Below are positions 10,992 through 37,979 of a stretch of 64,000 nt of DNA, piece after piece; the stretch's first letter is position 1; each line of letters opens with the position of its first letter. The position numbers were made by a program, and so were the translations under genes. Source of the stretch: an uncultured virus (IMG/VR IMGVR_UViG_3300033417_000007) (Duplodnaviria; Heunggongvirae; Uroviricota; Caudoviricetes); the IMG/VR virus record IMGVR_UViG_3300033417_000007; one strand, written 5' to 3'. The notes below the pieces were generated by a model, which saw only the letters and a list, made by a program, of their open reading frames with translations, did not search any database and was not told where the DNA came from.

Positions 10992-12881
10992 ATGCCGAGA
11001 AAGAAGCAGTCTCCGACTCCGTCGCCGAGTGATTCCAACTCCGACGACGCCGCCGTCGCCGTGGACGAGGTTGAGAGCGACCTGGCCGCCGCCGAAGGCG
11101 AGGCCCGGGACGTCGAGGCGACTTCCGAGGAGGAGGACGCTTCGGCCGCCGAGGAGGCCCCCAAGAAGAAGCGTCGCGGCCGGCCCCCCGGCCGCGCGAG
11201 TCTGCGGGTGGTCGCGACCGGCGAAGCCGGCGCCGTCCGCGAGGCCATGAAGGACTTCAGCGGCGTGGACGTAGAAGGGGAGAAGTCCGAGGACGCCGAG
11301 GAAGTCGCCTCTCCCGCCGAAGAGGAAGAGGAGACGCCCGCAGGGACCTTCGGCCGGCTTCTCGCGAAGCCCGGCTACTTCGTTTCGGTGACGCGCAAGC
11401 GTCCGAAAACCTTCAATGGCCTCCGCTGCCCGAGCCGCCTTCCCGATGCGATCTACATCTGCCCGACGAGCCTCGGGGACATCAAGGAGGACGTCTTCGC
11501 CCGGTTCGGCGGGGAGACCTTCCACGCGTCCATCCATCGGGAGGGGCCCGGGGGGGACGCGAAGACCCTCGACGCGATCGAGATCCGGAATCCCGACGCC
11601 GTCATCCCCCTTCACGAGGGCGTCCCGATCGGCGCTCCGGAGGTCCATGGGGACGAGGAGCCCATGATCCCGATGGAGGAGGAGGTCGACGATCCGAGCG
11701 CGCAGCTCGCCAGGACCGTGAAGGAGCAGATCAAGGCCGCCGATCAGCTCGCGAAGCTCCGTCACGCCAAGCAGGTGATGAAGGCGCTCAAGGAGGACGA
11801 CGACGGGGAGGCCCCGCGCAAGGGCCAAGAGGCCTCCAAAGTCCGCGAGCTCGAGCAGAGGATCGCCGAGATGGCCGCCACGAACCAGCGGGAGCGTCGG
11901 TTCGAGAAGCTCGAAAGCCTCGTCACCCAGCTTGCCGAGGGAGGCGTCCGCGGCAAGGGCGGCGACGACTCCATGATGAAGCTCATGATCACGATGATGC
12001 AGTCGAGCGACCAGAGGTTCCAGGCGATGATGTCGACGTTCATGCCGCTCATCTCGGGCCAGGGCAAGCGGCACGACGACCTCGACGCGCAACTCGAGCG
12101 GCTCTCGAAACTGCGATCCGTCTTCGGGGAAGGCAGCAGCCGCCTGAAGTCGATCGAGGAGAAGCTCATGACCAAGGCGCTTGACCGTCTCCTCGACGGC
12201 GCCGACGAGAGGGACTCCGCGGACCAGAGTCTCGGCGAGATCGCGATCAAGGAGGCCGCTCCCATCGTCCGGAACATCGTCGACAAGATGGGGAAGGACA
12301 AGGTGCCCACGACGGCGCCCACCCAGGAGGAGTTCAAGCGCGCCGTCGCCCAGGAGGCTCAGCGGATGGTGGGCGAGCTCGCCAAGAAGTGGCAGTCGGA
12401 AGGATACCTCGTCAAGCTCCCGCAGGGGGCACTTCCGTCGCCGGCCCCTGCGGAACCCGCGCCTGCGAAGGTGGAAAAGGTAGAGGCTGAAGAAGAGGAG
12501 GAGAACGTGCCGACGGCTCCGCATGAGGCAGGGTACGACCGCAAGCAGGCGGTGAACTTCGTCCTGGATTCGATCCTGAAGGAGATGCCCGCTCGACTCG
12601 AGAACGGCTACCTGCTCGGCGACATCATCGATCGGCTCGACGACGAGCTGCTCGAGGGGCTCTGCAAGGTGGGCTCCGCGGAAGACCTCGAACGGCTGAT
12701 CGGCCCGCACTCCGATCAGGCGAAGCTGAGGAAGGTCACCGACGCAGTGAAGGCCGACGGCGCCGCGGCGACGTGGCTGCGGCAGATGATCATGTCCGCC
12801 CAGCACGAGTACCAGAAGTCGCTGCAGAAGCGCGGAGGGGACGAGCCGGCGCCGCCGCAGAATCCGACCGAGGAGTTCTAG
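10992..12881 (+). CDS. Large acidic, coiled-coil protein of unknown function (first gene of the rightward arm)
   Basis: 629 aa; disordered acidic N-terminus, AT-hook-like RRGRPPGR, Met-rich helical middle. Confidence 0.85.
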   Translation: MPRKKQSPTPSPSDSNSDDAAVAVDEVESDLAAAEGEARDVEATSEEEDASAAEEAPKKKRRGRPPGRASLRVVATGEAGAVREAMKDFSGVDVEGEKSEDAEEVASPAEEEEETPAGTFGRLLAKPGYFVSVTRKRPKTFNGLRCPSRLPDAIYICPTSLGDIKEDVFARFGGETFHASIHREGPGGDAKTLDAIEIRNPDAVIPLHEGVPIGAPEVHGDEEPMIPMEEEVDDPSAQLARTVKEQIKAADQLAKLRHAKQVMKALKEDDDGEAPRKGQEASKVRELEQRIAEMAATNQRERRFEKLESLVTQLAEGGVRGKGGDDSMMKLMITMMQSSDQRFQAMMSTFMPLISGQGKRHDDLDAQLERLSKLRSVFGEGSSRLKSIEEKLMTKALDRLLDGADERDSADQSLGEIAIKEAAPIVRNIVDKMGKDKVPTTAPTQEEFKRAVAQEAQRMVGELAKKWQSEGYLVKLPQGALPSPAPAEPAPAKVEKVEAEEEEENVPTAPHEAGYDRKQAVNFVLDSILKEMPARLENGYLLGDIIDRLDDELLEGLCKVGSAEDLERLIGPHSDQAKLRKVTDAVKADGAAATWLRQMIMSAQHEYQKSLQKRGGDEPAPPQNPTEEF

Positions 12882-12884
12882 CGG

Positions 12885-13172
12885 GTGGCCCAGCAGCAGG
12901 AAGAGGGTCCGGCGCCTCAGGCGGGCGCCGGCCCAAAGAACGCCGCGAAGATCGAGCGGTTCGTCCGCGCGTTCGAGTCCACGTCGGTCGAGATCTCGAA
13001 CCTGATCGAGGTGCTTACGCACAAGGAGGACGGTCTCATCGCCGCGATGGACGACCTGTCCGGAGAGATCGGGTCCCTTGCCGAAGAGATCCGCGGTCTA
13101 CGCCTCGACATGCGCGCGGCGGCGAAAGCGCGCGGCCTCGGGAGCGTGTTTGACCTTCTGCGCGGAGGATGA
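12885..13172 (+). CDS. Small coiled-coil protein
   Basis: Heptad pattern; GAGGAG SD. Confidence 0.75.
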   Translation: MAQQQEEGPAPQAGAGPKNAAKIERFVRAFESTSVEISNLIEVLTHKEDGLIAAMDDLSGEIGSLAEEIRGLRLDMRAAAKARGLGSVFDLLRGG

Positions 13173-13194
13173 TTTCGGGATTCCGTTTCGCCTA

Positions 13195-13617: not shown

Positions 13618-15075
13618 ATGCTGGCTGAAGAGGTCAAGACGGAGCGGCTCTTCCGCGGATACCGCGGAACATCCGACACCATCGACCGGATGCACAAGCT
13701 GGTCCAGCAGGCGAAGCTGGATCCGACGATGCATAGGATCGCGACCCTCATCCGACTGTCGGTTCCCCAGGATCCGCGGGGCTCCTCGAAGGAGACGGCC
13801 GACGCGATCTTCAACTGGGTGAAGAAGCACGGCTGCTTCCAGCGCGACCAGTTCCAGATCGAGCGGGTGGAGCATCCGATCAGCTCCATGCAGACGACGA
13901 TCAAGGCGCGCCAGAACGGCGTCGACACCAACGGCAAGCTCTTTGTCGGGGACTGCGACCAGTACGGGATCTGGGTCGCGGCGCTCGGGGGCATCCTCGG
14001 ATTCCAGTACGCCTTCGAGACCTCGAAAAGCGACCTCGAGCGTCCCGACGAGTTCTCGCACGTCTGGGCGGCGCTCCGCGTGGGCCCCGAATGGATCGCC
14101 TACGACGCCTCCACGCCGAGGTCCGAGCCCAACTGGAGGCCGCCGATCACGGGTCCCGACAAGTTCAAGCGGTGGCCCGAGAAGGAAATCGAACGGACGC
14201 TGTCCGGATTGGGGGACGCCGTGAAGGGTGATGTTCCGTTCATGGTACCGCGCGAGTACTTCGGCGCCGGCGACCCCGCCGGCGTCGACGACCCGATGAC
14301 GAGTCTCGAGCCAAACCCGGGCGAGATCGACATGCTCATTCCTCCGGAGCCGATGAATCCGGACGAGAACTTCGGTGACGACTACCCGCGCTTCTCGAAG
14401 GAAGAGGTCGAGGCGGCGTCCCACCGGATGAGCCTGATCACGAACACCGACACGGGCCCCCATTACGCCCCGGCCGGTCGGCCCTCCTACTTCAAGGTGC
14501 AGAAGCGGATGTACCCCAAGGGGTCGCTCTGGAACCGCCAGGAGGTCAGCCGTGTCGATCGGGCGACCGGCGAACCCTACTTCAAGGTTGATCCCTCGAC
14601 GGTACCGTCCGAGGAGGTCGAGGTCGGCATGGTCAGTCCCGTCACGGTCGTCGAGCGGGACGGCCGGCCGCATGTGGTTCGCCGGGACATTCGGAGCGAA
14701 CTCATCCTAAGGAGACCGAAGATGCACCCGGCAGGAATGGGCGCCACGATCCCGACGAGCGTCGCGATCGCAAGTGGAGTGACGGCGGCCGACGCGGGCG
14801 TGAAGGCCGTGACCGAGTCCAAGAGCGTCTGGGACACGATCTCGGACGTCTTCAAGAGCGTCGCTCCGGCTGCGGCGGACGTGCTTTCGGCGAAGTACGC
14901 GCCGAAGGTCGCGGACGCCACCAACCGCGTGGCCGGCGGTCAGGTGATCACCGCCCAGGCCTACATCCAGAAGCCCTGGTATCAGCAGACCTGGGTTTGG
15001 ATGGGCGCCGCGGTTGTCGCGGCCGGCTTCGGGGCGATGGTGATGCTCAAGCCCGCCAAGAGGCGTCGTCGGTAG
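13618..15075 (+). CDS. Transglutaminase-like (Cys-His-Asp) enzyme, putative virion maturation protease, with C-terminal membrane anchor
   Basis: GDCDQ, FSHVW and YDAS in the first ~190 aa; ends in a hydrophobic helix plus KPAKRRRR. Confidence 0.8.
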   Translation: MLAEEVKTERLFRGYRGTSDTIDRMHKLVQQAKLDPTMHRIATLIRLSVPQDPRGSSKETADAIFNWVKKHGCFQRDQFQIERVEHPISSMQTTIKARQNGVDTNGKLFVGDCDQYGIWVAALGGILGFQYAFETSKSDLERPDEFSHVWAALRVGPEWIAYDASTPRSEPNWRPPITGPDKFKRWPEKEIERTLSGLGDAVKGDVPFMVPREYFGAGDPAGVDDPMTSLEPNPGEIDMLIPPEPMNPDENFGDDYPRFSKEEVEAASHRMSLITNTDTGPHYAPAGRPSYFKVQKRMYPKGSLWNRQEVSRVDRATGEPYFKVDPSTVPSEEVEVGMVSPVTVVERDGRPHVVRRDIRSELILRRPKMHPAGMGATIPTSVAIASGVTAADAGVKAVTESKSVWDTISDVFKSVAPAAADVLSAKYAPKVADATNRVAGGQVITAQAYIQKPWYQQTWVWMGAAVVAAGFGAMVMLKPAKRRRR

Positions 15076-15078
15076 CCG

Positions 15079-15300
15079 ATGGACACGATCGTGGGACCTC
15101 TGACCGACCAACTCGTCGCGCGGATCCTTCCTCAGATGAAGGACATGGTCGCGCGCGCGGCGGAAGGCGCGGAGCCCACGATCCGCAAGGTGGTGATCGA
15201 GGAAGTGCTCCCGAAGTTCGGGGCCGCGACGGTGCTCGGGATGGTGGCCGGCGCGATCGGCGCGGCGGCTATCGGGTCCTGGTTCGCGACGAGGCGATAG
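15079..15300 (+). CDS. Small tail-anchored membrane protein
   Basis: C-terminal Gly/Ala hydrophobic helix followed by RR. Confidence 0.8.
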   Translation: MDTIVGPLTDQLVARILPQMKDMVARAAEGAEPTIRKVVIEEVLPKFGAATVLGMVAGAIGAAAIGSWFATRR

Positions 15301-17514
15301 ATGAAACTCGTGAAGGGGTCTGCGGCGGCGAAGGCGCACATGGCGCGCCTGCGCGCGATGGCGGGGAAGCGCCGCAAGGCGGTTCGCCCCGTGACCGGCG
15401 CCCCCAAGAGGAAGAACCCCTACTCCGTGACGGGGGAGTGGTTCGAGCCTGGGTTCGTCATCTGGGACACGCCGGTCCAGGCCGAGGCCTACAACGCCGT
15501 CCGCGTGCTCGCTGACAACGACATCCCCGCGCACGTCGAAGCGGCGCCGGGGGATCCGAAGAAGTTCGGAAGCTGGGTCTACAAGGTCCACATCGACCGT
15601 CCCGAGGACTCGACCACCCGGATGATCGCCGAAGGCGCGCTCAACCGGATCGCAAGCGAGTCGATCAAGGGGCGCATGATGGGCGAATGGTCGAGCATTC
15701 CGCGCCCTCGTGCGCCGCGGCGTGGCCGCCGGCGGGTGGCTCTCCCGAATCCCCGGCGCCCGAAGATCGACCCGATCGACCGCGCGATCGAGCAGGCCTA
15801 CTACAGGGTCGCGAGCGGCGTCCAGGTCTCGATCATGGACATCCCGAAGATCTTCCGCGACGCGAAGACCCTGCTCGCCGGAGGCCGGACCGACATCGAC
15901 CAGGTGCTTATCGAGGTCGTGAAGAGGTATCAGGTGGCCGGCACCGGCGGACGGATTCTCAACAACCCGCATGGCGCGCGCGGAGCCTACTTCATCATCG
16001 ATCCCGTGACGAACAGGATCCTCTGGATCGTCCGCGGGCATCCGATGCACTCGTTCAACAATTCGGTCAAGCTCGCCACCGAGGCCGCGGCGAAGCTCGG
16101 TCGCAATGTGGTTCACGTCGTCCACCCTTACGTACCTGCCGGCTTCAAGAAGGGGACGGAGGTGACGCCCATCTTCTACCACTACGGGTCCAACACCGTC
16201 ACGCCCGAGGGGAAGATGTTCAAGACGATCTACGACAACCCCCCGGCCTTCTTCTTGATCGACGCCCAGAACGGGAAGATTCTCGAGATCTTCAAGGGGC
16301 ATCCCGCAAAGACATTTAAGAAGTCGGTCGACATCGGGATGTTGGAGGCGGCGAGAACCGGTCGCCCCGTCATTCACGTCGTTCACCCGCGCGTCCCCGC
16401 CGGCTTCAGGGTCGGCCACGCCGTCTCGCCGATGTTCTACCACTACGGGGCGAACATCATTTACCCAGACGGTCGCATGGTGAAGCGGAACCCGAAGTTC
16501 AAGGCCCGCTTCACGGCTTCCGACGGTGTCGAGATGCGCACTGAGACGTTGTGGGCGCGCAGCGCCCTCAAGAAGGCCGATCGCATGACGCTCGACATGC
16601 CGGCGCAGTTCAGGGGGCCGCGCTCCGAGATCGAGGTCACGCGCTGCAACCCGCGCGGCTGCAAGAACCCGGGGCACCGGCACGCGCGGAAGAATCCGTC
16701 CGGCTGGTCGCCGATCGGACTGTTCACGTCGACCGAGGCGACGTCGGTGGCGGACCGTCTTCGCGCCGCCGGGATTCAGGTGCGCGCTTATGAGACGGTA
16801 CCAAACCACGTCACCCTCACGGTTCCGTCTTCCATGCGCCGCGCGGCCAGGGCACTCATCGCGCGCAAGAACCCGCTCATGCAGGTGGTGACGCTCAAGA
16901 ACCCGAAGCGCCCCCAAGCCTCTCGCTCTGTCCCGTTCGATGTTTACCTGGATGGAAAGAAGATCGACACGGTCTTCGCGGGACCGAAAAGCGATGCCGT
17001 TGCCGAAGAAGTTCGACTCTCTCTCATCAACCACGACGGCTACGATCCCAGGATCGTCGTTCGCCGGCGCGGCGGGAAGGCGGGGTCGCGACCCGTTCGA
17101 AAGAACCCGGTCGGAAAGATCCCGTTCCGCCACGGCCAGATCATCACGGTCGCGCAGGCGCTCGCCTGGGCCAAGCAGACCGGAAACACCTCGCTCGTCA
17201 AGCAGTGCGAGCAGGCGATCGCGCTTTGCAAGAAGGCGAACGGGCCGGCCCAGAAAGTCCGCTTCGATCTCGTGCAGATGGGCGACCCCAAGAAGATCGA
17301 GTCGGTGATGGCCGGTGTCGAGTACGGCCAGACCGACGAGACCGTCTACAAGCCGACCAAGGGCTCGAAGAAGGGTCAGCACCTCTACCGACATGAGTGG
17401 GGGGAGGGCAGCGGGAAGCGCAAGCCCGTGCCGCTCATCGCTCCGGTCGGTGGGAAGGCGCTCGTCATGCCGCTCGGAAGTCGGCAGACCGCCGGAGATT
17501 GGTTGAGAGGATAG
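15301..17514 (+). CDS. Basic modular protein punctuated by 11 Asn-Pro motifs; putative core polyprotein
   Basis: 737 aa; repeated (R/K)NP; internal duplication of about 85 aa. Confidence 0.85.
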   Translation: MKLVKGSAAAKAHMARLRAMAGKRRKAVRPVTGAPKRKNPYSVTGEWFEPGFVIWDTPVQAEAYNAVRVLADNDIPAHVEAAPGDPKKFGSWVYKVHIDRPEDSTTRMIAEGALNRIASESIKGRMMGEWSSIPRPRAPRRGRRRVALPNPRRPKIDPIDRAIEQAYYRVASGVQVSIMDIPKIFRDAKTLLAGGRTDIDQVLIEVVKRYQVAGTGGRILNNPHGARGAYFIIDPVTNRILWIVRGHPMHSFNNSVKLATEAAAKLGRNVVHVVHPYVPAGFKKGTEVTPIFYHYGSNTVTPEGKMFKTIYDNPPAFFLIDAQNGKILEIFKGHPAKTFKKSVDIGMLEAARTGRPVIHVVHPRVPAGFRVGHAVSPMFYHYGANIIYPDGRMVKRNPKFKARFTASDGVEMRTETLWARSALKKADRMTLDMPAQFRGPRSEIEVTRCNPRGCKNPGHRHARKNPSGWSPIGLFTSTEATSVADRLRAAGIQVRAYETVPNHVTLTVPSSMRRAARALIARKNPLMQVVTLKNPKRPQASRSVPFDVYLDGKKIDTVFAGPKSDAVAEEVRLSLINHDGYDPRIVVRRRGGKAGSRPVRKNPVGKIPFRHGQIITVAQALAWAKQTGNTSLVKQCEQAIALCKKANGPAQKVRFDLVQMGDPKKIESVMAGVEYGQTDETVYKPTKGSKKGQHLYRHEWGEGSGKRKPVPLIAPVGGKALVMPLGSRQTAGDWLRG
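15961..16494 (+). repeat. Tandem duplicated ~85-aa domain bounded by NP motifs
   Basis: AYFIID..GHP..HVVHPYVPAGF..FYHYGSN versus AFFLID..GHP..HVVHPRVPAGF..FYHYGAN. Confidence 0.9.
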
Positions 17515-17517: not shown

Positions 17518-18600
17518 ATGATCGGAATGCTCACGTTCATCAATCCCCCCCGACGGAAGAAGGCGCGTGCGCGTCTGCGTCGGGGCCGGAGAGGAGTCGC
17601 CCGCGAGGGCAAGGAGGTCTCCATGGCACGGAAGAAGTCCGTGCGCCGTCGCGGACGGCGCCGTTTGGCGCGGCGTGCGCGCCCTGTCACTCATCGGCGT
17701 CGGCGCAGCGCGTCGCGTCGTCGGCGTTCCTCGGGTCGTCGGCGTCGGCGCTCCTCGGGGCGTCGTCGTCGGATGATGCTCATGAACCCGGCGCCCAAGC
17801 GGCGTCGGCGTCGGAACCCCCTCTTCCGGTCCACCCGGACCGGTCGGTACAAGGGAGGCCGTCCGGGCCGTCGGCTCCGTCGGATCCGGCGCGCTCCCTA
17901 CGGCTGGAAGAACCCCGGCCGTCGGCGCGGCGGTCGTCGGCGCTACCGGCGCAACCCCGGCGCGATGGCGCTGCGGCGTCGGGTGAGCCCGCTCAAGGAT
18001 CCCGTCTCGGCCATCATGAACGTCTTCAAGGAAGCGTTCTCGATGGAGACGCTCGAGGCGGCGCTCCAGTCCGGCATCGGCTTCGGCGGCACCCTGGCCG
18101 GCTCGAAGCTGGTGTACAACACGCTCGTTCCGGCCTTCAACACGCAGGTCGGTCGGGTGGCGTCGGGCTTCGCCGTCACCATCCTCGAGACGCTGGTCCT
18201 CGGCTGGCTCGGCGGTCCCAAGATCGGCGCGCGGGTCCTGACCGGCGGCGTGCTCGCCACGCTGTGGCAGGGCATTTCCGAGGCCGTCCGCGGGACGCCG
18301 GCGGCGCAGTGGATTCCGACCCTCGGGGAGGGCCCGGAGGATGCGGAGTTCCGGCAGGCCATCGAGGCCGAGGTGCTCCGTGAGCTGCGTGGCGGGGGCA
18401 TGGACATGTACCTCCCGCCGGCCGGGATCTCGTACCTCCCGGCGGCCGGGTCGTCCGCCTACCTCACCGGGCGCGAGTCCGACCGGCTCCTGGCGACGGG
18501 CGTCAATGCCTACCTGACCGAGCGCGAGCTCGCGAAGGTCACGGGCATGGGCGACTCCGACGGGGAGTTCGGCGGGGCCAGTGCTCCGGAGCAGTTCTAG
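17518..18600 (+). CDS. Protamine-like Arg-rich DNA-condensing protein fused to membrane helices
   Basis: N-terminal ~150 aa of poly-Arg runs with 5 NP motifs, then 2-3 hydrophobic helices; second in-frame start at 17623 with SD AAGGAGGT. Confidence 0.85.
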   Translation: MIGMLTFINPPRRKKARARLRRGRRGVAREGKEVSMARKKSVRRRGRRRLARRARPVTHRRRRSASRRRRSSGRRRRRSSGRRRRMMLMNPAPKRRRRRNPLFRSTRTGRYKGGRPGRRLRRIRRAPYGWKNPGRRRGGRRRYRRNPGAMALRRRVSPLKDPVSAIMNVFKEAFSMETLEAALQSGIGFGGTLAGSKLVYNTLVPAFNTQVGRVASGFAVTILETLVLGWLGGPKIGARVLTGGVLATLWQGISEAVRGTPAAQWIPTLGEGPEDAEFRQAIEAEVLRELRGGGMDMYLPPAGISYLPAAGSSAYLTGRESDRLLATGVNAYLTERELAKVTGMGDSDGEFGGASAPEQF

Positions 18601-29240: not shown

Positions 29241-29612
29241 ATGGCGCTTGACACGGAAGCCTTGAAGGCGCTTCTTCTCGAGGGCGGTTCGAGCGTCTTC
29301 AGCATCATCAAGAAGCGCGCCGGCGAGCACCTCGACCTCGCGCGGGTTCGGAAGGACTTCGTCGAGGAGCGGTCCAAGCGGCTCCTCGAGCTCGGCGTCG
29401 AGTTCGCGCGCGCGACCTCCGACGAAGAGCGCGCGCGGATCAAGGAGAGCATGGCCACGGTGACCGACGCGATCACGTCGGAGCTGTGGGCTGCAGCGAC
29501 CGACCAGTCGGCCTCCTCGCGAAACACCATCAAGGCGGCGGTGGAGGGTGTCCGAGACTTCCTGGTCTCGGCGCTGCCGGTGGTTGCGAAGATCCTGCTC
29601 GGAGCGATCTAG
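29241..29612 (+). CDS. Helical protein with hydrophobic C-terminus
   Basis: GGGAGG SD; amphipathic helices. Confidence 0.75.
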   Translation: MALDTEALKALLLEGGSSVFSIIKKRAGEHLDLARVRKDFVEERSKRLLELGVEFARATSDEERARIKESMATVTDAITSELWAAATDQSASSRNTIKAAVEGVRDFLVSALPVVAKILLGAI

Positions 29613-29620
29613 GAGGTTTC

Positions 29621-30724: not shown

Positions 30725-30734
30725 GAGATCTCCG

Positions 30735-31292
30735 ATGTCCACCACCTATCCGGAGCCGTCGAAAGAGGTCGTCGCAAAGGCGATCTCGAGTGCCGTCGTT
30801 GCCGACTTCAAGCGATACCCTTCGATCGGACGCCTGATCAGCCGCGCGAGGATGAGTCCCAACGCACTCCGGAACATCATGTTTCGCGACATTGAGCGGG
30901 ACGTGAAGAGGGCGCCGGGGAGGCCCCTCTTCCCGTCCCTCCGGAAGGTATTCCGGACCCAGATGAGGGTCGAGGGGGCGAAGCTCCGTGGGGGCCTCTC
31001 CCAGTGGGCGGATCTTGCCGGCGCGATCGCCGGAGCGGCGAGCGGCATCGTCGGCGCGAAGATCACGGCCGAGGGGAACAAGGATCTCGCGAAGGTGCAG
31101 CTCAAGCAGGAGGCGCTCGCCCTTCAGGCCGCGCAGCTGCAGGCGGACGCCGCCCGACTCAACCTGGCCGCGGCCCAGGGGGCCCCGTCGGCCGCGACTT
31201 CCTCGGGCGCCGCGAAGTACATGATCCCCGCCGTGATCGGCGCGGGGGTCCTCGTGGCGGGCGGCGCGGCCTACATGATGATGCGGAGGTAG
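30735..31292 (+). CDS. Tail-anchored virion membrane protein
   Basis: LRGGLS motif, Ala/Gln-rich helix, C-terminal TM plus RR. Confidence 0.8.
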   Translation: MSTTYPEPSKEVVAKAISSAVVADFKRYPSIGRLISRARMSPNALRNIMFRDIERDVKRAPGRPLFPSLRKVFRTQMRVEGAKLRGGLSQWADLAGAIAGAASGIVGAKITAEGNKDLAKVQLKQEALALQAAQLQADAARLNLAAAQGAPSAATSSGAAKYMIPAVIGAGVLVAGGAAYMMMRR

Positions 31293-31294
31293 TC

Positions 31295-32335
31295 ATGCCG
31301 TTCTACGCGCCGCCCAAGAGGGTGAGATTCGGACGCGGGGTGCCGTTCGCCGGGATGGCGGACTGGGGCGCCGCCGCCGTCGGCTTGATCGCGGACAAGG
31401 AGCTCGGAGCTCTCATGAAGGGCGTCCGCGGCCTCATCGACAAGTTGATCTCGCTCATCGGGGCGAGGGGCGCCATCCTCGACGGGTACAAGGTCGCCCA
31501 TGCGCGCTACACCTCCGCGCAGGCCAAGTTCGGACCGCTCCTCATTGCCGGGCCGATGGGGATGACACAGAACGTCCTTCTTCTTCCCTTCGCCTCGGCC
31601 TACGCGACGGCCCAGAAGGGCGTCAAGGTGCTCGCGCGCGAAGTCCAGACGATCGGGTTTCTCGATAGGATCTTCACGCAGATCTCCGCCGCCCTCACCC
31701 AGGCCGGGCTCTCCTCCGACGCGAACGCCATCGACCAGGCCGTCGCGCAGATCCGCAGGTTCGCGATCGAGACCGACGACCTCTTCTTCCCGATCCCGGA
31801 GTACATGCAGACGAAGAGGTCGATTCTCACCGAGGGTGTCCCCATCTGGCGTTCGCTCGGGGTGGGGGCGACCGCCTATGACGATCCCAAGTGGATGGCC
31901 GGCTACCTCAAGGCCGCAAACGCTGTGGTCCCCGTTGAGGGGGCTCCGGCGGCTCCGGCGGACCTGCAGGCCGCCGGCATGGGGGCGCTCCCGATCATCG
32001 CCCAGATGATCCTCTACGTGATCGTGATCGTGTCGGTCGGGATGTCGCTCGCGAGCGCGATCTCGCGCGTCATTCCGAACCAGAACGCGAAGGCCGAGAC
32101 CGCGGAGAAGCTGCTGCTTGAAGCCCAGAAGCAAAAAGCGAAGGAGGCCTCCCAAATGCGGGCGGCCGGGGCGTCCGAAGCCCAGATCGACGCCCGCATG
32201 GCGGCCATCGACACGGAGGTCGCCCGGGCCGTGAGCACGGTTCCGGACGCGCCGTCCCTCTTCAAGCCCATGATCGCCGTGGCTGGCGTGGTCGCGGCCG
32301 GATACGTGGCCGGGAAGGCGACGGGGGTCCTCTAG
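31295..32335 (+). CDS. Virion membrane protein
   Basis: AGMA and AGMG motifs; internal and C-terminal TM. Confidence 0.8.
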   Translation: MPFYAPPKRVRFGRGVPFAGMADWGAAAVGLIADKELGALMKGVRGLIDKLISLIGARGAILDGYKVAHARYTSAQAKFGPLLIAGPMGMTQNVLLLPFASAYATAQKGVKVLAREVQTIGFLDRIFTQISAALTQAGLSSDANAIDQAVAQIRRFAIETDDLFFPIPEYMQTKRSILTEGVPIWRSLGVGATAYDDPKWMAGYLKAANAVVPVEGAPAAPADLQAAGMGALPIIAQMILYVIVIVSVGMSLASAISRVIPNQNAKAETAEKLLLEAQKQKAKEASQMRAAGASEAQIDARMAAIDTEVARAVSTVPDAPSLFKPMIAVAGVVAAGYVAGKATGVL

Positions 32336-32336: not shown

Positions 32337-33635
32337 ATGGCGCCCGCGATCGACAGCCTCCGGGCCGTGCCGGAGATGGCCGTGCGGCTCCTCTGCGGCG
32401 CTTCGGTGAAGAAGTCCGGGGAGTCGGTCGTCGTCTCGTTCCAGGGCGAAGCCTTTGAGTGTCCGCTTACGGTATTCAACTACGCCTGCCAGATCGCGAA
32501 GATCCTCTCGATCGACCCCTCGCCTGTCCAGACGATGAACGACGTCCTGCGGCTGCGGCACAGGGCCGAAGACCACTTCGTGCAGATGTTCACGCTTGGA
32601 GACAAGAAGCTCCCGAAGGTGCTTTTCCTGCCGGCCGGCGAGATCGCGAGCGCCTTCTACCGGGCGCGCTTGCCGGCCGACATCCTGACTGACCAGGGGC
32701 GCCACGTTGCCCACTTCACCGAGCGGATCGACGCCATGAAGGTCCTCTACTACGAGGTGCTGTGGGTGCAGCTGGCCTGCGCGCCGATGCTTCAGAGCAT
32801 GGTCGGCCGCGTGAAGGAGGCGGGCGTCAAGATCATCTACGATGTGGACGACCGCTTCGACGTCATCCCCGACGAGAATCCCGCCGCGAAGATCTACGTC
32901 GAGCAGAAGCTCCAGTCCGTCTGGTCGATGATCAAGATGGCCGACGCGGTCTCGGTGAGCACCGAACCGCTCGCCGCACACATCCGGAAGTTCCATCCGA
33001 ACGTCCACGTCATCCCGAACGAGGTGACCGCCGCGATTCATCCGACCCGAGAGCGCAAGCCCAAGGACTTCGTCAGGATCCTCTGGGCCGGAAGCTACAC
33101 CCACAAGCGCGACCTGCGCGTGATGGCGCCGGGACTCAAGAAGGTGCTTGAGCGTCATGCCGGGAAGGTCCGCTTCACCTGCTTCGGGGACGTCCCGCCC
33201 GAGGCGCTCCACGGGGTGGAGCAGTACGTCGACCGGTTGCCCTTCGTCGGCTTCGTCGACTACGCAGAGGCCCTTGCGGGCGTGGACGCGGACATCGCGG
33301 TCGCGCCTCTTGAGGCGAGCGAGTTCAACGCCTCAAAAAGCGCCGTCAAGTACCTCGAGTACTCCGGGTGCAAGTACCCGTCGCTCCTGTCGCCCGTGGG
33401 CGAGTATACGGGACTTCCGAAAGGCGCTCCCCTTATCCATGTGAATGACGGGGAGTGGGAGAAGGCCCTCGAGTACGCGATTGGAAGCCCGTCCGAGATG
33501 GCGGCGCTCGGGGATCGCGCGAACGAGTGGGTTTCGTCCAACCGGTGCATCATCAAGTCCGGCGCTCGGAAGTGGGGGGAGCTTGTGGACGGTATCCTGT
33601 CGAACTCAAAAAAGGCCACGGAGGTGATCTCGTGA
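32337..33635 (+). CDS. GT-B (GT4-like) glycosyltransferase
   Basis: YRARLP, IIYDVDD, VSVSTEPLA, VIPN, WAGSYTH, FNASKSAVKYLEYS. Confidence 0.88.
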   Translation: MAPAIDSLRAVPEMAVRLLCGASVKKSGESVVVSFQGEAFECPLTVFNYACQIAKILSIDPSPVQTMNDVLRLRHRAEDHFVQMFTLGDKKLPKVLFLPAGEIASAFYRARLPADILTDQGRHVAHFTERIDAMKVLYYEVLWVQLACAPMLQSMVGRVKEAGVKIIYDVDDRFDVIPDENPAAKIYVEQKLQSVWSMIKMADAVSVSTEPLAAHIRKFHPNVHVIPNEVTAAIHPTRERKPKDFVRILWAGSYTHKRDLRVMAPGLKKVLERHAGKVRFTCFGDVPPEALHGVEQYVDRLPFVGFVDYAEALAGVDADIAVAPLEASEFNASKSAVKYLEYSGCKYPSLLSPVGEYTGLPKGAPLIHVNDGEWEKALEYAIGSPSEMAALGDRANEWVSSNRCIIKSGARKWGELVDGILSNSKKATEVIS

Positions 33636-34123: not shown

Positions 34124-35245
34124 GTGAGTTCCCTTTCGGACGGCCTCGAGGATCTCGTCCTGTCGGCAAGCGCCTTCGGCGTCACCGTCGAGGGGCTGAA
34201 GAACCCGTCCAAGTTCGCCGAACGGACCGGCCTCAACAGGGCAGAAGGAAAGGGGGCTCTCGTAGGGCATACGCTCGAGTTGGCAGTGCCTGAGGACCTC
34301 AGGCAGTTCGCCTCCGGACATCAGGTGGTGGGGCGCGGTGGGAAGGTCAAGGAGACCTTCGAAGACCCTTACCTTCGCATCTCCCCGAAGCTTTCCGTCG
34401 ACTACATCCGGACGGAAGACGGCGCGAAGAAGAAGTTCGTCATGGGCAAGTCGACCCTTTTCACGAAGACGACGAAGATGTCGGCCGCGTCGTGGTCGCT
34501 CCCGGCGGGCCCCCGAAGCATCTCCGGCACCTGTGCCGCGGCCGAGATCTTCAAGAGCCCTGCGGCCTATGATGTGGCGCTTCGCCAAGGCGACGTCGAG
34601 CAGCGCGCGCCGAATCCGAAGACCTGGATCTATGCCTATTGTTATGCGGGAAAGTCCAACTACATGTATCGCAACAGCCAGTACGCGCAGCTTACGCACG
34701 CGGTCTGACTCAAGGGGATGGTCGAGGGTCATGGGGTGGACGGCGCCGCGGAGGTCATGGCCGGCGCCCTGGCCGCGCACCTCGGGAACAGGAAGAGGAG
34801 GCTGGCGTTCGGAGAGGATCCGCTTTTCTTCCGGATCCACGACTCCGGGGACTTCACGTTCTCCCCGAACACCTACCTCCTCTGGAAGCTCGTCGCGGAA
34901 GATCCCAGGATGTCCGCGGTCTCCTTCTGGGCGCCCACCAGGATGTGGGTGTTCCCGCAGTTCCGCCGGATCGTCTCGGAGAACCCTCCTCCCGAAAACA
35001 TGTCCCTTCGGCCTTCGGCGCTCCACTTCAACGACCTGGCTCCGGGGATCGACGGCTTCCATGCGGGATCGACGGCGCACACGAAGGGGACGGATCCCGT
35101 TAGGGATGGAATCGCCCAGTGGGTTTGTCCCGCGTACCAGCACGACGGAAAATCCTGTGCTGGCGGCGGGGGTCCCCAGCGCGAGAAGGATTGCCGCGCG
35201 TGCTGGAGCTACAAGGACACGGAAGTCTCCTACTTGGTCCACTGA
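34124..35245 (+). pseudogene. Gp88-like Cys-rich protein interrupted by an in-frame TGA at 34706-34708
   Basis: SWSLPAG..TC, CYAGK, FRIHDSGDF, FWAPTR and CRACW all lie in one frame across the stop. Confidence 0.75.
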
Positions 35246-35528: not shown

Positions 35529-35577
35529 GAACCTTGCGTGGGCATCGTTGTCCGCATAGAATATAGGCGAGGTCGCT

Positions 35578-35934
35578 ATGAAACGAAGGCTATCGGAAAG
35601 GCAGCTCCAAGCCGCCAGGCGCGTCACCGAGATGGTTCGCCGGCGCGGCTATCATCCGCTTGCGGCCAGGAACTTCGTCATCGACGCGATCAAGCGCGCG
35701 CGCGACGTAAAGGACGGGATGGGTCAGGATCTCTTCGAGGAAGGCGAGCCCGAGAAGAACATCCTGCAGAGGGTGTCGGAACTCGAATCCGTCAAGATGG
35801 TCCGCGAGTCCATCAGCCCCTGGCTCTGGGTGACGTCGGTGGTGGGCTTCGGGATGGCGCTCATGAACTCCCGCCGGATCGCGCTCATGTTCGGCAAGTG
35901 GAGGGCCAAGCAGCCCAAGGCAAAGACCGCATGA
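35578..35934 (+). CDS. Membrane protein with a helical leader and DGMG motif
   Basis: GAGG SD; C-terminal TM and basic tail. Confidence 0.8.
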   Translation: MKRRLSERQLQAARRVTEMVRRRGYHPLAARNFVIDAIKRARDVKDGMGQDLFEEGEPEKNILQRVSELESVKMVRESISPWLWVTSVVGFGMALMNSRRIALMFGKWRAKQPKAKTA

Positions 35935-37979
35935 AGTCGTTCCTCCGCAACTGCGTGAAGAAGGTCGTCTCCTACCTGACAGAGGATCGCCCCTGCTACC
36001 GCTGTGCCGCGGTCGCGAAGGCGTCCTACGCGGGATACGACTACTGCCGGATCTGCAGGGACGTCGTCCTCACCATGCAGAGCGCGGTCCACCATGATCC
36101 GCCGTTCGGGTTTCCGGGGTCGAAGGGATACGTCGAATTTCCGAAGAAGGAGGAATCCAAGTGAAGGAGGAATCCAAGTGACGGAGAATCTCGCGCCTTT
36201 CGGGATCGTCCGCCACCGCCCCGGCGCCGGCCAGGTTGTCCGCAGCGACACCATCGATCGGTACTGGCGGTCCAGGAAGGACGGCTCCAACGTGATGGTG
36301 GTCAAGTTCCTGAATGTCGCCAACGAAGGCAAGAAGCGGATCGTCTTCGTCGGTGAACTCGCCCCCACCCGCGAGGTCTCCTGCGACTACGCGGACTTCA
36401 TGCGGGACTTCGAGACGCGCGGAAACGTAAGCTCGAAATTCTAGCGCCGCCATGACGAAGACCGACCCGCGGGCGACGGAGGCGACGCTCCGGAGCTTGC
36501 TCCAGCTGTCCTCGAGGGACGCCTGCGAGATCGCCTCCGCGATCGCGGCCTCGAGGGAGGGGAGGGACTTCGGGGGGGTTCTGGATCTCGCCGCCGACCT
36601 GATGGACGCCGAAGGCGTCGAAAGCGACGGCGAGGTTTCGTGCGTGATGGCCCCGACGGGCACAAGGACGCTCTACTGTGTTCTGGGGACGGGGGAGTTC
36701 TTCATTGGAGGCGTCCGGTAGGACGCGCAATCATGCCGGTTCCGACGAACGAAGACCGCGCCGAGAGGGGGCGGGCCATCCTCGAGGAGTACGGGAAGCT
36801 CGCTGGAGAGCCCGACGAGGACACCCCCACGCTTCTCGCGGATCTCCTGGCGGACCTGCGGCACCTGGCCCGGGAAGAGGGGGTAGACTTCGGGAAATCC
36901 TCCGACATGTCCAAGATTCATTTCAACGAAGAGGTGGAGGAGGAAGGCGGAGACGAGGACCACGAGGACGACGACGAGGGAGTGGACTGAAGGGCATTTC
37001 CGGGCGTCGGCCGCATTAAACTTTCTCCCAGACCGCGGCCGACGCCCATCCTTATACGAGGGAGCGATGAGAGACGAGCGCGGGAACGGCGAGGCTGAAG
37101 TCAGGATGCCCTGGAGCCAGAAGGTCGATCGGGTGATGACGCAGGTCCGCGCGCGGGCCTTCCGGTTGATGGTCGCCGGCTATGTCGTCTACGGCGGCGG
37201 CACCGCCGCGATCATCCTCGCGATGGGCGACAAGCCGCTCACCGGCTACCTGATCATGTTCCTCTTCCAGCTGATCGTCCTTTACTTCGGCACCCGCGAG
37301 ATGTACACCAACTTCGCCTGTGCGCTCAGGATCACGCTTGAGGCCAACGAAGAGATGATGCCGACCTTCCAGAAGATCGCGGACCTGGTCGAAAGCGCGA
37401 AGGAGGGAAACCACCCGGCTGTGAGCCGGATGGAGTCTCACCTGGAGAGCGCCGCGGAAAGCATGGCGGCGATCCGCGTCGCGATCGAGCGGCAGATGAA
37501 GCCGCTCCCCGTCAACAGGCGTCCGCCTGAGGCGGTGGACGACGTAACCAGGGTGATCGGGTAGGTCATGGAGAGGGTCGAAGGCCGCGCTCTACTTCGT
37601 GATCCAGAGGGCGGAAAGGAAATTTCCCTGGATCTCTGGCGTCGTCGTTCGGGAGTGCCGAGCGGCATCCACGGAGCACAGGAAAAGCTGGCGGCAGTTC
37701 GCTCACGCCGGCCACGTCAAGGGGGCCGTCTGCGTCGCCCGGGAAGCCGAAGACGCCCTCACCGATCTCGAGCTCGTCGGCATGTGCGCGCACGAGCTTG
37801 GGCACGTCGTCGGGGACCGCTTGCGGTTTCCAGCGCACAGCCGGCCGTGGAGGGGGGAGAAGACCCCCAAGCGCGTGCAGGACGAGGCTGACAAGATCTC
37901 GGAACTCTACTTCGGGATCCCGATCCGGTACAACCGTCGTCGCATCCAGGTGCCCGCGACCCTAGCGGCGCTCAAGTAG
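35931..37979 (+). other. Run of small rightward ORFs: 35931-36164 (CxxC pair), 36178-36444, 36452-36721, 36732-36990 (acidic), 37067-37564 (2 TM), 37599-37979 (HELGH)
   Basis: Tight packing, SD motifs, protein-like composition. Confidence 0.65.
36146..36179 (+). repeat. Perfect 17-bp tandem duplication at a gene junction
   Basis: GAAGGAGGAATCCAAGT x2. Confidence 0.95.

Follow-up and report, generated by a model that had tools for sequence, protein, structure and literature searches.

A window of 64,000 nt from an uncultured virus, which is the whole stretch of DNA analysed here, contains a 27-kb run of rightward genes at 10992–37979, and this block raises the question of what kind of virion it encodes. 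The initial annotation proposed an unusually large tailless, membrane-containing, jelly-roll-type virus of bacteria. Our analysis supports this interpretation, the gene content pointing to the lack of a tail, to the membrane and to the bacterial host. The window probably represents about 97% of a ~66-kb, most likely circular, dsDNA genome of an uncultured prokaryotic virus that is not tailed and belongs to the jelly-roll class, i.e. the 'PRD1–adenovirus', Varidnaviria-type architecture. Its genome is several times larger than those of the small tailless membrane-containing phages with similar jelly-roll shell genes, and the lineage, widespread and apparently undescribed, probably comprises the largest prokaryotic double-jelly-roll viruses.

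To describe the gene layout, we used third-position GC, which places all of the coding ORFs of 10992–37979 on the + strand and the coding of both flanks (1–10659 and about 38000–64000) on the − strand; thus, the co-directional block noticed earlier is real. Coding in the window is dense and intron-free. The contig of the virus is 65,919 bp long, in agreement with the earlier estimate of at least 64 kb, and about 1.9 kb of it lies outside the window. Homologs of the putative capsid protein at 19517–20437 fall into 86 clusters (48–77% identical), whose contigs reach at most 75,049 bp, with seven others at 64–75 kb. Four relatives (G001–G004; 68,945–72,725 bp) are rated 100% complete and have direct terminal overlaps of 123, 127, 124 and 27 nt, respectively. 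The offset of the capsid gene differs in each of them, showing that they are circularly permuted with respect to one another. In addition, two metagenome contigs (L028 and L029) carry the left-end genes of the window followed by its right-end genes on one strand. Because of these overlaps and bridging contigs the ~66-kb genome is most likely circular, as had been suggested, and the two leftward arms would form a single arm joined across the 1.9 kb beyond the window. This arm would supply the primase, helicases, SSB, nuclease, tyrosine recombinase and many glycosyltransferases. Pfam and PHROGs annotation of the window revealed no DNA polymerase, so the host polymerase is presumably used.

Table 1. 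Features of the 64,000-nt window, with the evidence for each assignment.
Position	Strand	Feature	Evidence
1–10659	−	Left arm: pentapeptide-repeat protein, HNH endonuclease, SNF2-like helicase, NYN domain protein, SSB, UvrD-like helicase, primase-like protein	Pfam, PHROGs
10992–13172	+	First two block genes: 629-aa acidic protein and 95-aa protein	ORFs
13618–15075	+	Membrane-anchored transglutaminase-like cysteine enzyme, SSIP-1 gp34 homolog	BLASTP, Atlas
15079–15300	+	Tail-anchored membrane protein, 73 aa	Hydrophobic segment, residues 47–65
15301–17514	+	737-aa repeat protein, [K/R/N]-N-P motifs, C-terminal domain of about 140 aa	Motif count, homology
17518–18600	+	Protamine-like Arg-rich N-terminal half; C-terminal half conserved, partly hydrophobic	Composition, homology
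18757–19392	+	Single-jelly-roll protein, 211 aa, most conserved gene of the group	Upstream of capsid gene
19517–20437	+	Major capsid protein candidate, 306 aa, double jelly roll	Predicted fold, trimer, homologs
20427–21176	+	Conserved protein, 249 aa, directly after capsid gene	Homology, position
21187–21549	+	Small beta-rich conserved protein, 120 aa	In five of five genomes by protein clustering
21568–27673	+	Variable beta-rich proteins including fibre-like protein and Calx-beta protein	PHROG, Pfam
28634–32335	+	Small membrane protein cluster: two-segment, lipobox-like and three tail-anchored (29618–30724, 30735–31292, 31301–32335)	Hydropathy, sequence reading
32337–33635	+	Glycosyltransferase within structural block	phrog_7162, E 2.5e-36; all five genomes
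34124–35245	+	GP88-like gene	PF17338, E 1.7e-11
37599–37979	+	Conserved 126-aa protein, HExxH motif, final block gene	48–51% identical in all four relatives
38000–64000	−	Right arm: small genes without assigned role	Pfam, PHROGs
46207–61711	−	At least five glycosyltransferase genes and a methyltransferase, right arm	Pfam, PHROGs
50490–51269	−	Tyrosine recombinase, right arm	Pfam/PHROGs; 50–53% identical in all four complete relatives
61606–62466	−	PD-(D/E)XK nuclease, right arm	Pfam, PHROGs

The candidate for the major capsid protein had been flagged earlier as jelly-roll-like, and the fold comparison bears this out. The AF2 model (pLDDT 86.7, pTM 0.84) aligns over 216–245 residues with double-jelly-roll capsid proteins. 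The matches include the STIV capsid protein (Z 10.9–11.3), PRD1 P3 (Z 9.6–10.1), PR772 (Z 9.8), PM2 P2 (Z 8.9), phiCjT23 (Z 8.7–9.0) and FLiP (Z 8.0); a capsid gene of the P23-77 single-jelly-roll type, one of several types named earlier for comparison, does not fit this double jelly roll. In a Foldseek search against the PDB, no double-jelly-roll capsid protein was among the best 50 matches. The trimer prediction scores 0.93 compared with 0.00 for the best control, with at least 98% of the contacts common to three runs and a partner pLDDT of 90. The score was calibrated on two copies instead of three, with separate alignments, and there 20 of 30 solved homo-pairs and one of 23 single chains attained the mark. 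Residues 3–152 (plus 250–260) of one copy mostly contact residues 170–306 of the next, so the model predicts a head-to-tail trimer, the pseudo-hexagonal block of jelly-roll shells. However, cellular double-jelly-roll enzymes reach comparable or, for GH172/DUF2961, even higher values (GH172/DUF2961, Z 11.2–11.9; PHM and PNGase F, Z 9–10.6), and the fold by itself cannot tell a capsid protein from such an enzyme. GH172 enzymes reportedly form trimers as well; therefore, the trimer prediction does not discriminate between the two. The protein has no match to Pfam GH172 or to any other enzyme family in Pfam.

The gene upstream, at 18757–19392, was also flagged correctly as a jelly roll, in this case a single one. 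It is 62–65% identical in all four complete relatives and has 85 homolog clusters. Its AF2 model (pLDDT 76) matches the SPV1 capsid protein (Z 7.6–7.9), a PBCV-1 capsid chain (Z 7.8), the STIV turret-protein entry 4ind (Z 7.3) and HHIV-2 and HCIV-1 (Z 6.7–7.1), all below a Z value of about 8 and middling by the scale of the tool. We infer that it is either a penton protein at the fivefold vertices or a second capsid protein. The protein encoded directly after the capsid gene is 37–43% identical and constant in position in all ten related loci. The Atlas model of this protein is of low quality (pLDDT 0.52) and resembles beta sandwiches weakly, and profile comparison links the protein to neither of the two jelly-roll families.

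The nearest cultured relative, by BLASTP with gp34, BFVD fold matches and the capsid profile, is Salisaeta phage SSIP-1. This tailless membrane-containing phage has a genome of 43,788 bp (44 kb, compared with ~66 kb for the present virus) and is missing from the range of 10–31 kb given earlier for cultured tailless viruses. The transglutaminase-like protein is related to SSIP-1 gp34 (E 8e-6, 23% identity over 184 aa), which is annotated as a 'structural protein', i.e. a virion protein. DCD 112–114, His148 and Asp163 are invariant between the two, and both have a C-terminal anchor; for the protein of the window, the Atlas gives Transglut_core with a feature score of 0.94 and a structural TM of 0.76/0.81. 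The best BFVD match of the double jelly roll is I1ZBI0 (256 aa, E 1.4e-10), and the second-ranked match of the single jelly roll is I1ZBH9 (211 aa). The two accessions are consecutive and agree in length and order with SSIP-1 gp47 and gp46, which are adjacent and both annotated as structural, and on this basis they are presumably the SSIP-1 proteins. Sequence links to these capsid genes are weak: gp47 matches the capsid profile with E 0.0047 and 7.5% probability (narrow profile) or E 3e-4 and 39% probability (wide profile), and gp46 matches with E 0.017.

Regarding the membrane, 33 proteins of the + block were scanned for a hydrophobic 19-mer (Kyte–Doolittle ≥ 1.6) ending within the last eight residues. 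Five pass: the transglutaminase-like protein, the 73-aa protein and the three tail-anchored proteins of the 28634–32335 cluster. A sixth C-terminal anchor belongs to 6566–7228 on the − strand of the left arm. Thus, the membrane anchors described earlier are confirmed, whereas the number given for the block, at least six, is slightly high. Three more proteins of the block have N-terminal or paired hydrophobic segments. From this gene content and the distant cultured relative we infer a tailless, membrane-containing virion. The double jelly roll would build the shell as trimers, the single jelly roll would fill the fivefold vertices or act as the second capsid protein, and the five tail-anchored and other small membrane proteins would sit in a lipid membrane beneath the shell. 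The transglutaminase-like protein would travel in the virion, like its SSIP-1 homolog, and would process virion proteins or cut the cell wall at entry.

The Arg-rich protein at 17518–18600 is a candidate for a genome-condensing core protein. Its first 160 residues include 62 Arg and two acidic residues (50–57 Arg and one or two acidic residues in the four relatives), and its C-terminal 200 aa are 41–51% identical in the relatives; it would neutralise and condense the unusually long DNA. A HerA/FtsK-type ATPase, found in three of the four complete relatives (DUF87/HerA, E 3.5e-10; phrog_2666, E 5e-13; solved HerA chains, E 7.6e-5), would pump this DNA into the shell. Searches of the window (~97% of the genome) and of the complete relative G004 gave no packaging ATPase. 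The spike-like proteins reported earlier correspond to the fibre-like 21568–22671 (PHROG E 8.7e-10) and to 26258–27673, with three Calx-beta stretches (E 8e-30). Most proteins of 21568–27673 are common to G001 only or to no relative; they are candidate vertex spikes or receptor binders and would form host-binding spikes at the vertices.

We compared this reading with a very divergent tailed phage (Caudoviricetes), in which the hallmark genes lie beyond profile detection and the jelly rolls are accessory decoration or receptor-binding proteins. Genomes of 66–73 kb are typical of tailed phages, two families found here, GP88 and the Phage ABA sandwich domain, are also known in these phages, and the Atlas clusters nearest to two of the proteins carry automatic labels that are mostly Uroviricota. 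Tail fibres and decoration proteins also often contain jelly-roll domains, and such proteins are seen among the fold matches here. However, when 29 proteins of the + block, and likewise its other genes and both arms, were scanned against PHROGs and Pfam, no terminase, portal, HK97 capsid, tail tube, sheath or tape measure was matched. The absence noted earlier for the block therefore holds, and it extends to the whole window and to 79 of the 81 ORFs called in the complete relative G001. The only tail-category matches in the window are two PHROG 'tail fiber' families for the fibre-like protein, and the genes common to all five genomes include no terminase- or portal-type candidate. For example, the 629-aa protein (10992–12881) lacks a Walker A motif and matches nothing in Pfam, PHROGs or the PDB, 13618–15075 is a membrane-anchored transglutaminase-like protein, and 15301–17514 is conserved only over its last ~140 aa. 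The ATPase of G001 does match a PHROG annotated as 'terminase large subunit', but it is a HerA/DUF87 ATPase rather than a terminase fold and is absent from two of the five genomes. Furthermore, no proteins are better conserved than the two jelly rolls; decoration and fibre proteins, in contrast, tend to be the least conserved. A tailed phage is thus very unlikely.

The least probable account is a plasmid or other non-viral mobile element, about 70 kb long, in which the double jelly roll is a cellular-type enzyme similar to GH172 or PNGase or forms the shell of a compartment that is not viral. GH172/DUF2961 proteins rank first in the structural comparison, with the capsid proteins no more than one Z unit away, the many glycosyltransferases fit carbohydrate metabolism, and the circular topology, the tyrosine recombinase and the missing packaging ATPase in the window suit a plasmid. 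Against this stand the lack of an enzyme-family match, the HerA-type ATPase of three complete relatives and the fixed module that the capsid gene forms with the single-jelly-roll, Arg-rich and tail-anchored proteins in all ten related loci. This module includes a homolog of an experimentally annotated SSIP-1 virion protein, and the best viral fold matches share the lengths and accession order of the adjacent structural proteins of SSIP-1. In addition, genes for conjugation or plasmid partition were not seen, and the contigs are tightly capped at 64–75 kb, as for a packaged genome.

For the jelly-roll virus that we favour, the gene content suggests a prokaryotic host, probably a bacterium. SD-like 4-mers precede 37 of 60 genes (13.2 ± 3.0 in random sets), and the SSB is of the bacterial type (PF00436, E 3e-34). 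Among 185,579 reference genomes the capsid gene occurs in one, on a 14-kb MAG contig labelled Thermoanaerobaculia. The same architecture in an archaeon or a microbial eukaryote is unlikely, although another homolog is found on a contig binned with a MAG labelled as a Thermoplasmata archaeon and the D5-like primase-helicases of the relatives occur also in archaeal and eukaryotic viruses. Viruses with double jelly rolls have hosts in all three domains (PMC8328091). The bacterial SSB, HNH_3 and the strong PHROG matches of the replication genes speak against such hosts, though not decisively in the case of an archaeon, as do the SD-like sites, the lipobox-like signal sequences, the dense intron-free coding and the bacterial origin of the sole reference-genome match.

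Several other genes of the block are also shared with the relatives. The 629-aa protein, which appears by eye to form a coiled coil, is kept in all four with 24–28% identity, and a scaffold or size-determining role for the two genes at 10992–13172 is a guess. The repeat protein has eight [K/R/N]-N-P motifs (about 0.4 expected; 5–8 in each relative) and a C-terminus that is 41–52% identical in the relatives. The glycosyltransferase of the block is 42–44% identical in all four. In the window the GP88-like gene is broken by an in-frame TGA (34706–34708); in three relatives it is one gene of 365–367 aa, and G001 has Trp at the aligned position.

We modelled the product of 19517-20437 (306 amino acids), the candidate major capsid protein, with AlphaFold2 from an alignment of 49 of its 86 homolog clusters, which show 48-77% identity and none of which is named. 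The model (pLDDT 86.7, pTM 0.84) has two beta-rich halves linked by a helix. In a structural alignment to 48,161 PDB representatives, with which a second look agrees, double-jelly-roll capsid proteins aligned over nearly the whole chain: the STIV capsid protein (Z 10.9, second look 11.3, 227-238 residues), PRD1 P3 (Z 9.6-10.1, 241 residues), PM2 P2 (Z 8.9, 216 residues), phiCjT23 (Z 8.7, 193 residues), FLiP (Z 8.0, 190 residues), and PBCV-1, faustovirus and EhV-201 (Z about 7.2, 237-245 residues). The first 50 matches of a Foldseek search of the PDB were generic two-sandwich proteins and included no double-jelly-roll capsid protein, and PDB profile and sequence searches with alignments A1, A2 and A3 and with 10992, 15301 and 17518 gave nothing at E < 0.09. 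In the model, the chain thus has the two jelly-roll barrels that characterize the capsid protein of double-jelly-roll viruses, a likeness of fold that cellular proteins share equally. These viruses belong to kingdom Bamfordvirae of Varidnaviria, with their prokaryotic members in class Tectiliviricetes.

In the prediction for three copies of 19517-20437, the chains close into a head-to-tail ring, with a score of 0.93 against 0.00 for the best control, a pLDDT of 90 and at least 98% of the contacts common to three runs. The mark for this score was calibrated with two copies rather than three; in that calibration, 20 of 30 solved homo-pairs and one of 23 single chains attained it. The prediction supports a trimer, that is, a pseudo-hexagonal capsomer, although it could also reflect likeness to solved trimers. 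Both the fold over nearly the whole protein and the trimer, here predicted, are features of PRD1 (Tectiviridae), PM2 (Corticoviridae), STIV (Turriviridae), FLiP and phiCjT23.

Cellular double-jelly-roll enzymes score equally or slightly higher against the model, namely GH172/DUF2961 (Z 11.2-11.9), PNGase F (8.7-9.1) and PHM (8.2-10.6). Therefore, the fold alone does not say capsid, and the case for a capsid protein comes from the genomic context. The likeness to GH172/DUF2961 is structural only: 19517-20437 matches no Pfam family at E <= 0.01, neither this one nor those of PNGase F and PHM, the GH172 chains listed are 370-450 amino acids long compared with 306, and the context here is viral. 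The sphaerolipovirus-type viruses (P23-77, IN93, SH1, HHIV-2 and HCIV-1), with genomes up to about 30 kb, also have two adjacent jelly-roll capsid-type genes, and their internal membrane would be shared by the virus described here. However, their two capsid proteins are vertical single jelly rolls, whereas 19517-20437 has two barrels in one chain, and P23-77 VP16 and VP17 align with only one of these (Z 5.5, 110-119 residues). With its two barrels and its alignment to double-jelly-roll capsids over 216-245 residues, the protein falls outside Helvetiavirae (P23-77, SH1).

A tailed phage was considered from the gene content. By third-position G+C, the coding ORFs of the window (G+C 58-68%) fall into three blocks: leftward 1-10659, rightward 10992-37979 (hereafter the block) and leftward about 38000-64000. 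We compared 29 block proteins with PHROGs and Pfam, and the remaining block genes and both leftward arms with Pfam and PHROGs; terminase, portal, HK97 capsid, tail tube, sheath and tape measure had no match in block or arms. Matches in the block were few, to tail-fibre PHROGs, Calx-beta, a glycosyltransferase PHROG and GP88 (see table). By these profile searches, which can miss extremely divergent proteins, the window appears to lack the hallmark set of Caudoviricetes (terminase large subunit, portal and HK97-fold capsid). The product of 10992-12881 was rejected as a terminase, being an acidic low-complexity sequence with neither a Walker A motif nor a match. In G001, one of four complete relatives (G001-G004) in IMG/VR, portal, HK97 capsid and tail families had no Pfam or PHROG match in 79 of the 81 called ORFs; the two ORFs left out, among them the capsid gene itself, cross the boundaries of loci. 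The initial annotation had proposed an unusually large tailless, membrane-containing jelly-roll virus, and our analysis supports that interpretation. It is probable, in our view, that this is a true non-tailed virus with a jelly-roll capsid, which infects a prokaryote and has a genome of about 66 kb. The same annotation counted at least six C-terminally anchored membrane proteins in the block. A hydropathy scan found a hydrophobic 19-mer at the extreme C-terminus of five of 33 block proteins, one fewer than claimed, and N-terminal or paired hydrophobic segments in three more; the rest of its description of the block was right in substance. An inner lipid membrane and a tailless particle are suggested only indirectly, by the five anchored proteins and by the lack of tail-gene matches.

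Features of the window and of its complete relatives, in the coordinates of each genome
Feature	Genome	Coordinates	Strand	Evidence or remark	Match in all four complete relatives (tblastn)
Nucleoside deoxyribosyltransferase-like	Window	1113-1544	-	phrog_12607	
NYN-domain protein	Window	5447-6307	-		
Acidic low-complexity protein	Window	10992-12881	+		Yes
C-terminally anchored, transglutaminase-like	Window	13618-15075	+	Anchor by hydropathy	Yes
C-terminally anchored	Window	15079-15300	+	Hydropathy	
Asn-Pro motif protein	Window	15301-17514	+		Yes (C-terminus)
Arginine-rich protein	Window	17518-18600	+		Yes
Predicted single jelly roll	Window	18757-19392	+		Yes
Predicted double jelly roll, capsid candidate	Window	19517-20437	+		Yes
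Third jelly-roll candidate	Window	20427-21176	+		Yes
Fibre-like protein	Window	21568-22671	+	Two tail-fibre PHROGs, best E 8.7e-10	
Calx-beta protein	Window	26258-27673	+	E 8e-30	
C-terminally anchored	Window	29618-30724	+	Hydropathy	
C-terminally anchored	Window	30735-31292	+	Hydropathy	
C-terminally anchored	Window	31301-32335	+	Hydropathy	
Glycosyltransferase	Window	32337-33635	+	PHROG E 2.5e-36; inside structural block, kept in all five genomes	Yes
GP88 match	Window	34718-35245	+	Part of gene 34124-35245	
HExxH protein	Window	37599-37979	+		Yes
Conserved protein	Window	45822-46196			Yes
GT2	Window	46207-46809	-		
RNA ligase-like	Window	48114-48677	-	phrog_14301, E 3e-35	
Conserved protein	Window	51908-52342			Yes
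GT9+GT1 fusion	Window	53405-55387	-	660 aa	
Methyltransferase	Window	55815-56456	-		
GT2	Window	56360-57097	-		
GT1/GT4	Window	58219-59253	-		
GT1/GT4	Window	59831-61711	-		Yes
HNH endonuclease	Window				Yes
Recombinase	Window				Yes
HerA-type ATPase	G001	52834-54810	-		
HerA-type ATPase	G002	55903-57306	+		
HerA-type ATPase	G003	4077-5483	-		

The gene just upstream of the capsid candidate, 18757-19392 (211 amino acids; 85 homolog clusters), is the most conserved of the group, with 62-65% identity in all four complete relatives compared with 50-52% for 19517. It was modelled as a single jelly roll (pLDDT 76). The best structural matches are capsid or vertex proteins, all of them middling with Z of about 8 or below: the SPV1 capsid (7.6-7.9), a PBCV-1 capsid chain (7.8), satellite panicum mosaic virus (7.8), the STIV turret-protein entry 4ind (7.3), and HHIV-2 and HCIV-1 (6.7-7.1). 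The model thus suggests the fold of a single-jelly-roll vertex (penton) protein, a likeness from which the position in the shell cannot be told. For the third candidate, 20427-21176, the Atlas offers a poor model with weak look-alikes, and the family profile gave nothing against both jelly-roll families and gp48 of SSIP-1, the cultured tailless phage Salisaeta icosahedral phage 1.

Of the public phage records, only that of SSIP-1 could be linked to the window by sequence. It is a cultured, tailless virus of about 100 nm with an internal membrane, T=49 and a circular 43,788-bp dsDNA genome (PMC6356626, PMC4958249, PMC6260650); the same papers list two capsid proteins, possibly of the single-jelly-roll type. 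The link is between 13618-15075 and gp34, which is annotated as structural (BLASTP E 8e-6, 23% over 184 amino acids). Both have an invariant Asp-Cys-Asp, His and Asp and a C-terminal membrane anchor, and the domain of 13618-15075 is assigned a transglutaminase-like fold (Atlas: features 0.94; TM 0.76/0.81 over 172 residues). Among 33 by 33 proteins of SSIP-1 and the window, no other gene pair was found by BLASTP at E < 0.01. The capsid genes may be connected through fold. The top BFVD fold match of 19517 is I1ZBI0 (256 amino acids, E 1.4e-10, TM 0.56/0.66), and the second BFVD match of 18757 is I1ZBH9 (211 amino acids, TM 0.46). Because the accessions are consecutive and the lengths and order are equal, we infer that these are gp47 (256 amino acids) and gp46 (211 amino acids), which are adjacent and both annotated as structural in the SSIP-1 record. 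On this identification, the gp46-gp47 pair would have the same order and fold as the single and double jelly rolls of the window.

In sequence, the capsid genes of SSIP-1 resemble those of the window only weakly and are barely alignable. gp47 gave E 0.0047 (7.5% probability) against a narrow capsid profile and E 3e-4 (39% probability, hhalign) against a profile of 65 diverse members of the capsid family, and gp46 gave E 0.017. The larger capsid protein, possibly of the single-jelly-roll type in the SSIP-1 literature, models as a double jelly roll here. SSIP-1 shares with the window's group a circular dsDNA genome that is unusually large for a tailless phage; however, it measures 43.8 kb compared with 66-73 kb here, and its gp43, a structural protein of 2,319 amino acids, has no counterpart in the window. 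The architecture is of a known kind, but its form here is new, far larger and highly divergent; SSIP-1 is the nearest cultured relative.

A scan of IMG/VR with the single protein 19517-20437 found no relative, and an alignment-based scan then found nine related loci. By tblastn, 10992-12881, 19517-20437 and 17518-18600 had no match in 50,697 public phage records. The four complete relatives have direct terminal repeats, are rated 100% complete and measure 72,725, 70,898, 68,945 and 70,980 bp (terminal overlaps of 123, 127, 124 and 27 nt; G+C 57-63%). Since the capsid gene is found at 19.9, 29.9, 44.7 and 11.1 kb in these contigs, in the same order, the four are circular permutations of one map. 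Contigs of the 86 capsid clusters reach at most 75,049 bp, and seven, apart from that of the window, are of 64-75 kb; sizes up to this maximum fit packaged genomes, not prophages in chromosomes. The window's own contig is 65,919 bp long, so that about 1.9 kb lies outside the window. An exact 50-mer from the window's end was absent from the metagenome collection. The proposal that both window ends join into a single leftward arm on a circle is supported by gene order in two metagenome contigs, L028 and L029, and thus by relatives rather than directly by this contig. There, one strand carries a UvrD-like helicase, a 52494-like gene, SSB, 2875-like and 62584-like genes, a PD-(D/E)XK nuclease, a GT4 glycosyltransferase, a 51908-like gene, a recombinase and a 49834-like gene, which is the order of the window's left end joined to its right end, except for the 52494-like gene (beside 51908 in the window).

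Of the 80 proteins of the window, 14 recur by tblastn in every one of the four complete relatives (see table). The order 13618 ... 15301 (C-terminus), 17518, 18757, 19517, 20427 is kept in ten related loci, of which L004 has no match to 13618. The replication genes of the relatives encode a D5-type primase-helicase, a Sak4-like ATPase and a DinG-type helicase, compared with UvrD-like and SNF2-like helicases in the window; as the UvrD-like helicase is absent from the relatives G001-G005, replication modules differ within the group.

Prokaryotic double-jelly-roll viruses are otherwise small. The window resembles them in having a single-jelly-roll partner gene and many small membrane proteins in the structural module. 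It differs in lacking a protein-primed polymerase and in genome size, which is four- to seven-fold larger, and no sequence similarity to them was found. To our knowledge, they have no counterpart of the arginine-rich protein and the large glycosyltransferase set. Cultured genomes (PRD1, PM2, STIV, FLiP and phiCjT23) are of 9-18 kb (PMC6260650), and metagenomic ones of roughly 7-18 kb (PMC5894146).

The HerA/FtsK-type ATPase of the small viruses is present in three relatives and is not universal here. In G001, G002 and G003 it lies beside the homolog of 45822-46196, with matches to DUF87 (E 3.5e-10), phrog_2666 ('terminase large subunit', E 5e-13) and solved HerA chains (E 7.6e-5); the sole PHROG 'terminase' match, in G001, is this HerA/DUF87 ATPase. 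In G004 an HNH endonuclease occupies its spot (58.2-59.6 kb) and there is no ATPase. The 64-kb window, which leaves 1.9 kb of the contig outside, yielded no packaging ATPase by Walker A motif, Pfam, PHROGs or tblastn, and strict and loose Walker A scans found no P-loop protein in it besides the two helicases. Since the ATPase was found in neither G004 nor the window, this candidate packaging enzyme is not universal in the group, and the lack of a match in the window is the main gap in the assignment to the double-jelly-roll viruses. The window's gene may lie in the 1.9 kb outside, may have been replaced by an unrecognisable protein or may be dispensable. The FLiP and Odin groups may do without a packaging ATPase. 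Some members here, such as the window's virus and G004, may encapsidate their DNA without a dedicated enzyme.

The first 160 residues encoded by 17518-18600 include 62 arginines and two acidic residues (50-57 and 1-2, respectively, in the four relatives). Upstream, 15301-17514 has eight [K/R/N]-Asn-Pro motifs, where about 0.4 are expected from composition, and its relatives have 5-8, an enrichment of about ten- to twenty-fold. The motif also occurs three to five times per 17518-type protein, mostly in the arginine-rich region. We infer from these compositions that 17518-18600 would be a DNA-condensing core protein and that the motifs are possibly processing sites. A protamine-like core protein would let a large DNA fit under an internal membrane, and the membrane-anchored, transglutaminase-like cysteine enzyme of the virion may cut it at the Arg/Lys-Asn-Pro sites. 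If so, the arrangement would resemble, by analogy, the basic core proteins and maturation protease of adenovirus, and would be new for a phage.

The host is probably a bacterium. SD-like 4-mers precede 37 of 60 genes, compared with 13.2 +/- 3.0 (maximum 20) in 200 random sets, and the window's SSB is of the bacterial type. Among 185,579 reference genomes the capsid gene occurs in one, on a 14-kb contig of a Thermoanaerobaculia MAG, and another homolog lies in a MAG labelled as a Thermoplasmata archaeon. No integrated copy was observed, so the role of the conserved tyrosine recombinase may be either to integrate the genome or to resolve circular multimers. When 1.84 billion representatives (50% clustering) were searched exhaustively with a profile, 414 capsid-family proteins were recovered at E <= 1e-3, 196 at E <= 1e-10 and 13 at E <= 1e-30, most of the 414 full-length (280-350 amino acids), down to about 20% identity and all unnamed. 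The family is far broader than the ~70-kb clade (proteins P0177-P0320). Ten distant members that we looked up are unnamed and lie on contigs of 1.8-87 kb, one of them on an 87-kb NCBI contig. For the distant members P0212 and P0177 the longest contigs, of 58 and 87 kb, are of little help, and neither has a relative in IMG/VR.

The capsid module has no Pfam or PHROG match. Without a standard marker, such genomes will probably go unclassified in viromes or be given a tailed-phage label; the automatic labels of neighbouring clusters in the Atlas are mostly Uroviricota. Prokaryotic double-jelly-roll viruses have been regarded as the small end of their realm, in contrast to the complete genomes of 69-73 kb found here, which indicate that genome growth in jelly-roll architecture is not limited to viruses of eukaryotes. 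They offer a prokaryotic case in which to ask how a jelly-roll shell lined by a membrane can be enlarged and by what means its DNA is condensed and packaged, and the long-standing orphan SSIP-1 gains a set of relatives. Tentatively, and with more doubt than confidence, the group could be the first recognised, widespread family- or order-level prokaryotic double-jelly-roll lineage that combines circular genomes of ~65-75 kb, an arginine-rich core protein, cleavage and, in some members, packaging without an ATPase. SSIP-1 would then be its only cultured, smaller cousin, with an orphan capsid to be re-read as the double-jelly-roll type, and the genomes would be four to seven times those of classical tailless phages and above the <50 kbp quoted for the phylum Preplasmiviricota (PMC11071308). 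The comparison table of a 2026 review of large phages (PMC13359090) has only tailed, HK97-fold viruses. A full-text search of the literature found no description of 65-75-kb prokaryotic double-jelly-roll viruses in the main texts covered, a corpus outside which most subscription journals lie.

Several further features of the window were observed. No tRNA or Rfam family was found in it. The stretches 27670-28630 and 44000-46000 show a lower G+C, a faint third-position signal (0.61 in the 28-30 kb bin and 0.58 in that of 44-46 kb) and no tblastx match to the relatives; the former contains overlapping ORFs whose C-terminal parts resemble small membrane or coiled-coil proteins. Metallopeptidase-like HExxH motifs occur in two small proteins with no Pfam or PHROG match, encoded by 22684-23246 (+), where a lipobox-like signal (…LPACG…) precedes the motif, and by 37599-37979, which has 48-51% identity in all four relatives. 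The GP88-like gene 34124-35245 (+) is split by an in-frame TGA at 34706-34708, where G001 has Trp, and it is a single ORF of 365-367 amino acids in G001, G002 and G004. Nonsense mutation, an error in sequencing or read-through could account for this codon, which is the sole such case seen; a general reading of TGA as Trp was rejected, as every other gene is open under table 11. Sugar-modifying genes are unusually many, at 46207-61711 (-) together with 32337-33635 (+), and the glycosyltransferase set may serve virion glycosylation or alteration of the host surface. At the left end of the window, the product of 3-1079 (-) is a pentapeptide-repeat protein (PF00805, E 1.4e-34); G003 has a counterpart at 55% identity. 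Pentapeptide-repeat proteins can mimic DNA, so an anti-defence role of this protein is possible.
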